From NCBI RefSeq assembly GCF_024223415.1, contig NZ_CP100500.1: 64,000 nt of DNA; one strand, given 5' to 3'. How positions within the stretch are numbered: the first letter of the stretch is position 1; each line of letters opens with the position of its first letter. A program made the position numbers and the translations under genes. Positions 44,326 through 45,335 of this stretch are shown here, piece by piece. The DNA is from Escherichia coli (GTDB taxonomy: Bacteria > Pseudomonadota > Gammaproteobacteria > Enterobacterales > Enterobacteriaceae). The notes beneath the pieces are model-generated. The model had not been told where the DNA came from and searched no databases. It worked only from the letters and a program-made list of their open reading frames with translations.

Positions 44326-44739
44326 AAGAAAACATCCCCTGAGAGTTTAATTTTCGTCAAGATGCGTGGCGGACAATCCCCTGCCAGCGAAACGTTATCT
44401 TCCTGCTCCAGGTTTGCGACAATTTGCTGCGTCGCAAAAAAGCAAACGTTTAGCTCCGCGCATACAAAACGGGTGGTAAAAAAAGCAAACGATTATCCGG
44501 CGATCATAGCGGCTTTTTCAACCGAAGTTTGCTGCTTTTTTCTCTTTTATTGTCTTGACGATGAAAAACCAGGCAATTGATGCGCAAACGTTATCGTCGA
44601 TGCGCAAGATTGCAGCGTTAGCGAGCCGTATACCGTTCTGGATTGCGATAAAAAATCGTCTGAGATGACAAAAATATTGCGGCTAAAAAGTATACTTTTA
44701 CACTGGCGAAGAAACGCCGGTGACATACAATTAAAGCAT

Positions 44740-44878
44740 CAACACCAACCGGAACCTCCACCACGTGCTCGAATGAGGTGTGTTGACGTCGGGGGAAACC
44801 CTCCTGTGTACCAGCGGGATAGAGAGAAAGACAAAGACCGGAAAACAAACTAAAGCGCCCTTGTGGCGCTTTAGTTTT
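44740..44878 (+). ncRNA. ryjA: Candidate small RNA (RyjA-like) convergent with soxR
   Basis: Intrinsic terminator on + strand (aaagcgccc ttgt gggcgcttt + T-run, about 44848-44878) overlapping the soxR 3' end; K-12 RyjA is recalled to lie between soxR and yjcD. 5' end not determined. Confidence 0.3.
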
Positions 44879-45335
44879 GTTCATCTTCCAGTAAGCGTGC
44901 GCCGGTACCTTCTTCTCCTAAGCGGTCGCCCGGGTTACGCAACGGGCAATCACTGCGCGAAAGGCAGCCACAACCAATACATCCATCCAGTTCGTCACGC
45001 AGCGCCACTAAGGTATGAATGCGCCGATCCAACTCTTCTCGCCATTGGGACGAAAGCTGTTTCCACTCTTTCGCACTTAACGTATGCCCTTCGGGCAACA
45101 CGCCAAACGCTTCACCAATGGTCGCCAGCGGAATGCCAATACGCTGAGCAATTTTGATAATTGCGACATATCGCAACACATCACGTTTATATCGGCGCTG
45201 ATTGCCGCTATTACGGACACTGGTAATCAACCCTTTGCTTTCATAGAAATGCAGCGCCGATACCGCCACACCGCTGCGTTTCGCCACTTCGCCGGGGGTT
45301 AGCAGCGCTTTAATGCGGGGTAATTTCTTTTCCAT
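44871..45335 (-). CDS. soxR: Redox-sensing MerR-family activator SoxR ([2Fe-2S])
   Basis: 154-aa ORF; MerR HTH; C-terminal [12 protein letters not shown] cluster motif. Confidence 0.95.

Follow-up and report, generated by a model that had tools for sequence, protein, structure and literature searches.

Background

The spacer between ghxP and soxR raises the question of which transcript is ended by a strong hairpin terminator that reads on the + strand and overlaps the 3' end of soxR, a gene of the opposite strand. The preliminary description of the window, i.e. the whole 64,000-nt stretch of Escherichia coli DNA analysed here (assembly GCF_024223415.1, contig NZ_CP100500.1), had assigned this terminator, as the most likely case, to a small RNA originating in the ghxP-soxR spacer, the RyjA of K-12, for which it could name no function. 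SraL, also called RyjA, was discovered in 2001 and has an Rfam family, a K-12 gene number and two published targets. It is a well-known small regulatory RNA of the stationary phase, whose dependence on RpoS comes from work in Salmonella (PMC3753932).

Results

Identity and distribution of the small RNA gene

44738-44878, + strand: sraL (ryjA) small RNA gene, 141 nt, from the Rfam match and identity with K-12.
44871-45335, - strand: soxR coding sequence, 154 aa, convergent neighbour, from the ORF list, PGAP and the K-12 annotation.

A covariance-model search for RyjA had been proposed as a check and was positive when run. The Rfam model RF01408 (sraL; SraL = RyjA), with a gathering score of 39 bits, matched 44738-44878 on the + strand with 153.3 bits (E = 1.1e-34), and the match covers model positions 1-142 of 142 without truncation. 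In the E. coli K-12 MG1655 record a 141-nt ncRNA, ryjA (b4459), has the same placement relative to soxR and ghxP. The copy in the window is identical to it at 141/141 positions, and in a 261-nt alignment with K-12 only three substitutions were found, all outside the small RNA. The small + strand transcript of the spacer is thus the RyjA of K-12, as had been proposed, and the interval singled out for it, 44700-44880, spans the promoter (44703-44734) together with the RNA.

It had also been stated beforehand that failure to detect a + strand transcript would speak against a small RNA here; this is contradicted by northern blots and RNA-seq of E. coli RyjA (PMC5389530, PMC12956327). In these studies the RNA was detected by northern blotting and found to start with A (PMC12956327), and it was shown to be polyadenylated and to rise by 3.84 log2 in a pcnB mutant (PMC5389530).

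Of 5,426 complete E. coli genomes, 5,420 contain the sraL locus, although owing to a gap in PGAP it stays 'invisible' in almost every one of these records. At this locus the PGAP annotation gives soxR alone and no small RNA, and its silence is uninformative because PGAP does not annotate sraL there.

Genomic context and orthologues

Orthologues were collected by scanning genome contigs (298 Gb) with the pattern GNCGGGGGAAACCCNCC. The pattern was too loose and gave at least 120 loci, most of them chance matches in unrelated phyla. Among the matches listed, 20 enterobacterial loci could be used; screening of 19 of them identified sraL in 17. Two loci tried as sraL loci, L040 and L100, were rejected as chance matches with neither soxR nor ghxP nearby. 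The 17 full-length orthologues among the matches listed scored 103.7-164.2 bits and belong to Escherichia, Citrobacter, Enterobacter, Leclercia, Pseudescherichia, Kosakonia, Cedecea, Shimwellia and Phytobacter. The set is a biased sample because it was drawn by the GNCGGGGGAAACCCNCC scan, and part of the invariance of block 2 (nt 51-67) was built in by the same pattern.

In the window the last 8 nt of soxR (44871-44878, stop codon included) overlap the 3' end of sraL, exactly as in K-12, and sraL is divergent from ghxP. Among the matches listed, sraL and soxR converge at every one of the 17 orthologous loci, and the spacing between the 3' end of sraL and soxR there ranges from overlap to 153 nt. 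ghxP lies divergently upstream wherever the orthologous locus reaches that far, at a distance of about 0.41-0.43 kb in Escherichia and Citrobacter versus about 1.1 kb in the other genera. The upstream neighbour of sraL in Salmonella is STM4267, not ghxP (PMC3753932).

The soxS gene of the window carries an apparent 1-nt frameshift in a homopolymer (A6), which was seen in 0 of 5,426 complete genomes. Upstream of ghxP a notable local cluster of the PurR half-site GCAAACGTT was observed; counted over the whole window this half-site is not enriched (30 vs 23.7).

Promoter of sraL

44703-44708, + strand: -35-like element CTGGCG, read from the sequence, 17 nt upstream of the -10 element.
44726-44734, + strand: -10 element TACAAT (44726-44731) and TAA discriminator (44732-44734), from conservation in 18 sequences.

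A degenerate -35 box is typical of sigma-S promoters. The sraL promoter was missed by the sigma-70 consensus scan, and since a degenerate -35 is expected for sigma-S this miss is uninformative and not contrary. The promoter was judged instead by its conservation among orthologues. In the 18 orthologous sequences positions -35 to -29 are C (76 %), T (94 %), G (72 %), G (100 %), C (78 %), A (61 %) and A (89 %), with the consensus CTGGCA at -35. The -10 region has T at -12 (94 %), A at -11 (100 %), A at -9 (100 %), C at -8 (67 %) and T at -7 (100 %), and it is followed by a discriminator with T at -6 (83 %), A at -5 (94 %) and A at -4 (72 %). The orthologues keep a sigma-S-type promoter of the form TAnAcT plus TAA; the E. 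coli sequence has A at -13, not the C favoured by sigma-S.

The features of an RpoS-type promoter (a TAYACT-like -10, TAA and a degenerate -35) were found at the sequence level only, and 44703-44734 is on these grounds classed as the sigma-S-type core promoter of sraL. The promoter of Salmonella sraL was described with the same -10 box and TAA motif, and its RpoS dependence was demonstrated with an rpoS mutant, a lacZ fusion and ChIP (PMC3753932).

Terminator probably shared with soxR

44847-44881, both strands: bidirectional intrinsic terminator with a 13-bp hairpin (44847-44877), from a terminator scan and folding.
44875-44881, + strand: U-tract of sraL, TTTTGTT.
44840-44849, - strand: U-tract of soxR, UUUGUUUU, from the sequence.

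The + strand hairpin terminator is present at the place where it had been described, with a 13-bp stem at 44847-44877 and then TTTTGTT at 44875-44881. It has the structure AAACTAAAGCGCC-CTTGT-GGCGCTTTAGTTT, with 6 G-C pairs and a 5-nt loop, and its arms can be written AAAGCGCC/GGCGCTTT around the loop CTTGT. In the earlier quotation of the hairpin the right arm, given as gggcgcttt, was one base off, the sequence being tGGCGCTTT. The overlap with the 3' end of soxR was likewise borne out: the soxR stop codon TAA (44871-44873) sits inside the 3' arm.

Folding of the 44-nt hairpin segment gave -20.5 kcal/mol, well outside what chance would produce: dinucleotide shuffles gave -5.9 +/- 2.1 kcal/mol, and 0/200 of them reached the observed energy (z = -7.1). 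The same energy of -20.5 kcal/mol was obtained on both strands (z = -7.1 on the + strand and -6.2 on the - strand), and since the hairpin folds equally well in either direction it probably also terminates soxR. Overlap of the SraL terminator with that of soxR was reported by Viegas et al. 2007 (PMC2190706). Each of the 18 orthologues contains the arm CTAAAGCGCC. The number of terminator-like sites in the region showed no excess (2 vs 2.0 in shuffles); being equal to the shuffles, this count carries no information, and the z-score of the hairpin was used instead.

Structure and conservation of the RNA

44738-44787, + strand: 5' stem-loop domain, from the RNAalifold consensus of 18 sequences.
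44788-44832, + strand: central domain with two small hairpins within a 3-bp helix (nt 51-53/93-95), from the consensus structure.
44816-44854, + strand: A/G-rich block GGGAUAGAGAGAAAGACAAAGACCGG AAAACAAAC, from its invariance, single-stranded downstream of nt 95.

The 36 pairs of the consensus structure are 97.8 % paired, compared with 38-57 % when the partners are slid, and 7 pairs show double changes, chiefly in the 5' helix, versus 1.8 +/- 1.0 in shuffles (0/500 as high). The helix that closes the 5' domain joins nt 2-8 with nt 43-49 (44739-44745 with 44780-44786). In this region, compensatory double changes affect 4/8 pairs of helix 1 (three positions, for instance, change from A-U to G-C), and pairing is kept in 96.5 % of the cells. 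The central hairpins are GGG/CCC (nt 54-56/62-64) and UCCUGU/GCGGGA (nt 65-70/77-82), of which the second contains a single double change and, at several pairs, G-U in place of G-C. Because most of the central pairs are invariant, covariation neither supports nor contradicts them; the terminator, also mostly invariant, gives no covariation information either. The fold of the whole RNA is modestly better than that of shuffles (z = -1.94).

The most invariant blocks of the RNA are nt 12-20 and nt 79-104, both outside the tig seed, the second being invariant or nearly so in the 18 sequences from 11 genera. The A/G-rich block may serve as an Hfq distal-face site of the (ARN)x type, as a target-pairing region or as both. 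Earlier mapping placed an (ARN)x motif at RyjA nt 84-117 (PMC5575007), and the invariant A/G-rich linker coincides with it. Judged from sequence features, two putative chaperone-binding modules are present, the 13-bp 3' hairpin with UUUUGUU and the (ARN)x linker.

Targets, chaperones and turnover

44762-44771, + strand: tig-pairing region, nt 25-34, CACGUGCUCG, with the core GUGCUCG (44765-44771), from complementarity.

Silva et al. reportedly described in PNAS in 2019 that SraL acts by antitermination in the rho leader with ProQ/Hfq in Salmonella. The statement that no function was known is outdated, since Salmonella SraL acts on tig (PMC3753932) and on rho (PMC6582626, PMC12360218, PMC7192607, PMC7237705). 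It represses tig, encoding trigger factor, by base pairing, as was demonstrated by compensatory mutations and gel shifts (PMC3753932). As summarised in later sources, it shields the rho mRNA from premature termination, with ProQ/Hfq (PMC6582626, PMC12360218, PMC7192607, PMC7237705). All validation of tig and rho as targets was done in Salmonella.

In the window copy SraL nt 25-34 is complementary to positions -29 to -20 of E. coli tig (CGAGCAC-U-GUG: 7 bp, a bulge and 3 bp); some 11 nt separate this site from the SD sequence downstream. The 7+3-bp geometry and the location at the 5' end are the same as in the Salmonella tig pairing (PMC3753932). When windowed local duplexes were calculated, this site was the best accessibility-corrected interaction (-9.1 kcal/mol). 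The hybrid energy had no advantage over shuffled SraL (fraction as good 0.50), and the tig prediction is therefore a matter of consistency and not an independent proof. The best site predicted in the rho leader, SraL nt 77-104 with rho -151 to -127, was weak and not significant (-1.9 kcal/mol in total, 0.78 of shuffles as good). Unconstrained RNAduplex calculations that paired SraL with the leaders of tig and rho were discarded: whole molecules were zipped together and the p values versus shuffles were 0.21 and 0.55, respectively.

The exact tig seed GUGCUCG occurs in 5/18 orthologues and its GCUCG core in 9/18. With the seed exact in so few sequences, control of tig cannot explain the much stronger conservation of other blocks. 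By analogy with Salmonella we infer that the regulation of tig and rho works in the same way in E. coli, and since the RNA is identical to that of K-12 and the tig complementarity intact, a test of both mechanisms in E. coli would be straightforward.

Hfq stabilises SraL approximately 3-fold (PMC2190706), and ProQ is needed for its full level in LB (PMC6315103). In Salmonella SraL is degraded via polyadenylation by PAP I.

Discussion

The analysis established the identity of the gene, its boundaries and synteny, the anatomy of its promoter and terminator, a 5' helix supported by covariation and an intact complementarity to tig. The region 44738-44878 of the + strand almost certainly encodes the SraL (RyjA) of E. 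coli, a trans-acting RNA of the RpoS general stress regulon that would work by the mechanism proposed below. The RNA was already known, so the flagged feature is correct but ordinary and nothing novel is claimed for it. The call had been made from sequence alone and was right, which speaks for the scan.

Proposed mechanism

RNA polymerase with sigma-S would start at the A at 44738 from the promoter composed of TACAAT, TAA and a degenerate -35, and transcription would stop at the 13-bp hairpin and U-tract (44847-44881). The same hairpin, read in the opposite direction, would terminate the convergent soxR. The RNA is predicted to fold into a 5' stem-loop, in the upper part of which a short seed would be exposed, followed by a pair of small central hairpins, the invariant A/G-rich linker and, last, the hairpin of the terminator. 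The last two elements are of the kinds to which Hfq (through an ARN motif and a 3' U-tail) and ProQ (through a structured 3' hairpin) may bind. In stationary phase the seed would pair with the 5' UTR of tig just upstream of the ribosome-binding site and lower the amounts of trigger-factor mRNA and protein. A conserved region of SraL may pair with the rho leader and block the premature termination exerted by Rho itself, so that rho expression would go up. Removal of SraL would proceed by PAP I polyadenylation followed by attack of PNPase/degradosome.

Alternative readings of the locus

Another main role for the RNA would be cis-antisense action on soxR, either by convergent collision or by RNA pairing that creates an RNase III substrate, which would link RpoS to SoxRS. 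SraL and the soxR mRNA do share a fully complementary 3' hairpin region with overlapping terminators, the convergent arrangement is kept in 17/17 loci, with the 8-nt overlap of the soxR coding sequence in Escherichia, and an RNase III mutant accumulates longer SraL, RNase III cleavage in the shared terminator having been suggested (PMC2190706). The coding overlap is not conserved, however, as the spacing between the two genes varies from overlap to 153 nt, and the terminator hairpins, being paired intramolecularly, are poor intermolecular partners. The conserved synteny can be plain vertical inheritance, and validated trans targets, tig and rho, exist. A literature search on antisense action of SraL found no report of an effect on soxR. 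Such a main role is considered very unlikely, and trans action of SraL is the preferred reading.

Two separate suggestions going beyond the trans-acting reading are raised here as improbable ones. The convergence in 17/17 loci and the single shared bidirectional hairpin suggest that SraL could act in cis on soxR, either through transcriptional interference or because RNase III cuts a 3' duplex of SraL and soxR; if true, RpoS would directly control the SoxRS switch for oxidative stress. The position of the most invariant blocks outside the tig seed, which is exact in 5/18 orthologues, suggests that the selectively most important partner may be rho, a chaperone or another target, and not tig.

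It is scarcely credible that the transcript is a small mRNA for the 26-aa peptide MRCVDVGGNPPVYQRDREKDKDRKTN (ATG at 44773, stop codon at 44851-44853) and hence a dual-function RNA. The 26-codon ORF starts with ATG, lies wholly inside the RNA and forms part of a mechanical 62-aa ORF (44665-44853), but no Shine-Dalgarno sequence is found in front of the ATG (its 20 nt of upstream sequence read AACCUCCACCACGUGCUCGA), which sits in the 5' stem-loop, and the Rfam consensus has no ATG at the corresponding position. In E. albertii, the closest relative sampled, no ATG ORF closes inside the RNA, and in most other genera the ATG is absent or in another frame (MSGETLP, MCSTEGC and so on). The small-protein reading was rejected on the lack of an SD sequence and of in-frame conservation among the orthologues. 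The 62-aa ORF starts upstream of the transcription start, and the earlier view that no + strand protein gene ends at the hairpin holds for any conserved gene.

The reading of the hairpin as the soxR terminator alone, with no + strand gene and plain spacer upstream, can practically be discounted: the hairpin does hold the soxR stop codon, its - strand fold (z = -6.2) has the U-rich tail UUUGUUUU and PGAP lists soxR only, but the 110 nt upstream are over-conserved for a spacer (invariant blocks in 18 sequences from 11 genera) and contain a helix with compensatory changes, a conserved promoter lies at the right distance, the Rfam match is full-length, the ncRNA is a curated K-12 annotation and published northern blots show a 141-nt + strand RNA in E. 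coli and Salmonella.

Comparison with known small RNAs

The trans-acting SraL of the window is the same in all tested features as the SraL/RyjA type represented by K-12 ryjA and Salmonella sraL, and no structural difference was found; the functional experiments on this type were performed in Salmonella rather than in E. coli.

SdsR (RyeB), the other RpoS-dependent small RNA with broad conservation in enterobacteria, is a comparable case (PMC3753932), having, like SraL, a sigma-S promoter, accumulation in stationary phase and base pairing in trans. The two differ in sequence, locus and targets (ompD and others for SdsR). SdsR has SraC/RyeA as its overlapping partner on the other strand, whereas for SraL the overlap is with the terminator of a protein gene, and the window gave no Rfam match to the SdsR family.

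The ProQ-associated RaiZ resembles SraL in being highly structured with a long 3' hairpin, in a level that depends partly on ProQ and in the aid that ProQ gives to target regulation (PMC6315103, PMC7192607). RaiZ derives from a 3' UTR and represses translation of hupA, whereas SraL has an intergenic promoter of its own. SraL is in addition stabilised approximately 3-fold by Hfq and carries an (ARN)x motif.

DsrA, ArcZ and RprA block Rho-dependent termination on rpoS, and SraL has been grouped with them (PMC12360218, PMC6582626). These two sources present SraL as an antiterminating small RNA whose binding site in the leader lies upstream of the RBS, where it is believed to cover a rut site. It differs from DsrA, ArcZ and RprA in that its target is rho itself, which creates a feedback loop on the terminator protein.

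Identification of the small RNA gene

The segment 44738-44878 (+) is the known sraL gene itself. The preliminary description had proposed a RyjA-like small RNA on the + strand near soxR. This was borne out by a whole-window scan with Rfam 15, in which RF01408 (sraL) matched over its full length with 153.3 bits (gathering score 39, E = 1.1e-34, model positions 1-142 of 142), and by identity to K-12 ryjA at 141/141 positions. The names SraL and RyjA denote one RNA (PMC3753932).

Features of the sraL locus (window coordinates, strand, feature, basis)
44703-44708, +, -35 element CTGGCG (-35 to -30), 17-nt spacer to the -10 element; sequence and conservation
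44726-44731, +, -10 element TACAAT (-12 to -7); sequence and conservation
44732-44734, +, TAA discriminator (-6 to -4); sequence and conservation
44738-44878, +, sraL / ryjA small RNA gene; full-length match to Rfam RF01408
44847-44877, +, hairpin with a G+C-cored 13-bp stem, AAACTAAAGCGCC / CTTGT / GGCGCTTTAGTTT; sequence reading and terminator scan
44875-44881, +, T-tract TTTTGTT after the hairpin; sequence reading and terminator scan
44871-45335, -, soxR ORF; stop codon 44871-44873 within the 3' arm of the hairpin

The curated record of K-12 MG1655 places the ncRNA ryjA (b4459) at 4277926-4278066 (141 nt) on the strand opposite soxR, with an 8-nt overlap with the soxR 3' end and divergent ghxP on the other side. 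The gene layout of the window is the same, in reversed orientation relative to K-12; PGAP annotates only soxR at the site. The window is E. coli chromosome. A 351-nt query spanning the site was 100 % identical to several complete E. coli genomes and was present in 5,420 of 5,426, nearly always as a single chromosomal copy. In covariance-model score and full-length coverage, in identity to the type gene, in synteny, structure and promoter type, and in its terminator and tig seed, the gene agreed in silico with the sraL family.

Terminator and promoter

The + strand terminator hairpin overlapping the soxR 3' end was confirmed at 44847-44881 as originally described, save for one immaterial base: the right arm, quoted as gGGCGCTTT, reads tGGCGCTTT. 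The hairpin folds at -20.5 kcal/mol versus -5.9 +/- 2.1 in dinucleotide shuffles (z = -7.1, 0/200 as good), which is far beyond chance expectation. Terminator-like sites in the region were as numerous as expected from shuffling, with no excess, so their count carries no information. The reverse complement is just as stable (-20.5 kcal/mol, z = -6.2), and on the soxR-sense strand the hairpin is followed by UUUGUUUU, with a U-rich run there in most orthologues among the matches listed. The equal fold and this U-rich run indicate that the hairpin is very probably a bidirectional terminator, common to sraL and soxR. Such sharing is not new, the overlap having been noted by Viegas et al. (PMC2190706).

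The Rfam and K-12 5' end, A 44738, was taken as +1. E. coli RyjA is reported to start with A and to be readily visible on northern blots (PMC12956327). In an alignment of 18 sequences (the window copy and 17 orthologues among the matches listed) the -10 element was conserved at -12 T (94 %), -11 A (100 %), -9 A (100 %), -8 C (67 %) and -7 T (100 %), the discriminator at -6 T (83 %), -5 A (94 %) and -4 A (72 %), and the -35 region at -34 T (94 %) and -32 G (100 %). The Salmonella sraL promoter signature according to Silva et al. is TAYACT plus TAA with a degenerate -35 (PMC3753932), and that promoter is directly RpoS-dependent: the RNA is nearly absent in an rpoS mutant, a lacZ fusion is reduced and ChIP enrichment exceeds 100-fold (PMC3753932). 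Judged by their sequence, the window elements carry the same signature as the RpoS-dependent Salmonella promoter; position -13 in E. coli is A, not C. A generic sigma-70 scan did not call the sraL promoter, as expected.

Orthologues, structure and coding potential

Orthologues came from scanning one genome per species for a sequence pattern, and most of the matches listed were due to chance. Among the matches listed there were 20 enterobacterial loci, 19 of which were screened and 17 contained full-length sraL (103.7-164.2 bits); they represent Escherichia albertii, Escherichia sp., Citrobacter (3), Enterobacter (6), Leclercia, Pseudescherichia, Kosakonia, Cedecea (2), Shimwellia and Phytobacter. 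In these listed loci SoxR lay directly downstream on the opposite strand in 17/17, at a spacing from overlap (Escherichia, Citrobacter sp. FP75) up to 153 nt, and GhxP was divergent upstream wherever the locus reached that far. Distances between ghxP and the sraL 5' end among the matches listed were bimodal: ~0.41-0.43 kb in Escherichia/Citrobacter (the window and scan loci L011, L008 and L115) and ~1.09-1.16 kb in other genera (L012, L029, L072, L041, L069, L019, L077, L060, L097, L007 and L090). This bimodality suggests that the longer spacers hold an extra gene. In Salmonella a putative glutathione S-transferase gene, STM4267, adjoins sraL (PMC3753932).

Three RNA blocks were invariant in the 18 aligned sequences, orthologues being those among the matches listed: CCGGAACCU (nt 12-20, window 44749-44757), GUCGGGGGAAACCCUCC (nt 51-67), whose invariance is partly ascertainment because this block was the search pattern of the scan, and GGGAUAGAG-GAAAGACAAAGACCGG (nt 79-104, window 44816-44841). 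The terminator arms were likewise invariant, and the apical region of the 5' stem-loop, between invariant blocks, was variable. Cedecea neteri sraL (L080:410-574) is 165 nt long, with a ~25-nt GT-rich insertion, GTGTGTACGTATGTATGTGT..., in this variable apical loop, where E. coli SraL has its tig seed.

The RNAalifold consensus of the same 18 listed sequences comprised 36 pairs in 6 helices. Standard pairs filled 97.8 % of cells versus 38-57 % when the 3' partners were slid by 1-3 columns, and changes on both sides occurred in 7 pairs versus 1.8 +/- 1.0 in column shuffles (0/500 as high). The 8-bp helix that closes the 5' stem-loop accounts for four of these seven pairs; the other helices hardly vary and therefore speak neither for nor against the structure model.

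A 26-codon ATG ORF, MRCVDVGGNPPVYQRDREKDKDRKTN, lies inside sraL at 44773-44853 (+), as part of a mechanical 62-aa ORF. No Shine-Dalgarno (SD) sequence was found upstream of it, the E. albertii RNA has no ATG-initiated ORF closing inside the RNA, and other genera among the matches listed mostly lack this ATG or are read in a different frame. On these grounds a coding role was rejected, and the ORF is almost certainly untranslated.

Neighbouring observations

An A-run in soxS (45421-45743) is 1 nt shorter in the window than in K-12 (A6 at 45504-45509 versus A7), and this deletion breaks the 107-aa gene into ORFs of 44 aa (45421-45555) and 67 aa (45540-45743). Strain S51, identical across sraL, has intact soxS. 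The exact window allele occurred in 0/5,426 complete E. coli genomes, and the best matches showed 99.8 % identity and differed by 1 nt in length; the frameshift is thus either a private mutation that abolishes the function of the SoxRS effector or a sequencing error in the homopolymer.

In the ghxP-sraL spacer (44388-44592) the motif GCAAACGTT is exact at 44442 and 44584, differs by one base at 44485 and recurs in weaker form near 44388. These motifs are similar to half-sites of PurR operators and lie upstream of ghxP, which encodes a purine transporter and which we take to be PurR-regulated. Window-wide the motif was not enriched (30 versus 23.7 expected), so only its local clustering is notable. 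Matches to naRNA4 (RF02564, nucleoid-associated ncRNA 4; gathering score 59.5) at 25401-25477 (-, 106.3 bits) and 37428-37499 (-, 76.9 bits) are presumably REP/BIME-type repeats.

Functions and target pairing

The earlier statement that RyjA has no known function is out of date, since regulation of tig and rho has been published for Salmonella. Four secondary sources describe that SraL, with ProQ and/or Hfq taking part, pairs with the rho leader and prevents premature termination by Rho (PMC6582626, PMC12360218, PMC7192607, PMC7237705). Hfq stabilises SraL ~3-fold (PMC2190706), and full SraL levels in LB need ProQ (PMC6315103). Polyadenylation by PAP I strongly destabilises SraL in Salmonella (PMC2190706) and RyjA in E. 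coli (PMC5389530); in an E. coli pcnB mutant ryjA ranks among the five genes with the largest increase (log2 3.84), and the RNA that accumulates is exclusively full-length (PMC5389530). The (ARN)x motif for the Hfq distal face, mapped to RyjA nt 84-117 (PMC5575007), corresponds to the invariant A/G-rich linker of the 18 sequences with orthologues among the matches listed. For the E. coli rho leader, the best predicted pairing joined SraL nt 77-104 to rho -151..-127; at -1.9 kcal/mol it was weak and not significant.

The exact tig seed GUGCUCG (window 44765-44771) was present in 5/18 sequences and its GCUCG core in 9/18; the seed lies where the RNA varies most, while nt 12-20 and 79-104, blocks without a tig role, were invariant across 11 genera (orthologues among the matches listed). 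The rarity and position of the seed place the strongest purifying selection on the other blocks, whose presumed role is rho pairing and/or chaperone binding; tig control is, from this pattern, unlikely to be the function under strongest selection. A combined reading, in which the shared hairpin would let sraL act on soxR by cis-antisense or interference and the invariant blocks would have a further conserved partner, we regard as improbable.

Salmonella SraL represses tig (trigger factor) mRNA ~2-fold through a 7+3 bp duplex that its 5' part forms with the tig 5' UTR, close upstream of the SD; compensatory mutations on the chromosome and gel shifts prove this pairing (PMC3753932). The SraL-tig hybrid energy in E. 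coli was no better than that of shuffled SraL (0.50), so the pairing counts as consistency, not proof. With the accessibility term the best interaction (-9.1 kcal/mol) was at tig -29..-23 (CGAGCAC), perfectly complementary to SraL nt 28-34 (GUGCUCG) and followed by a 1-nt bulge and 3 more pairs; in the model the duplex could be lengthened by a CCUCC-GAGG contact at the SD. The geometry of this predicted E. coli duplex matches that of the published Salmonella pairing.
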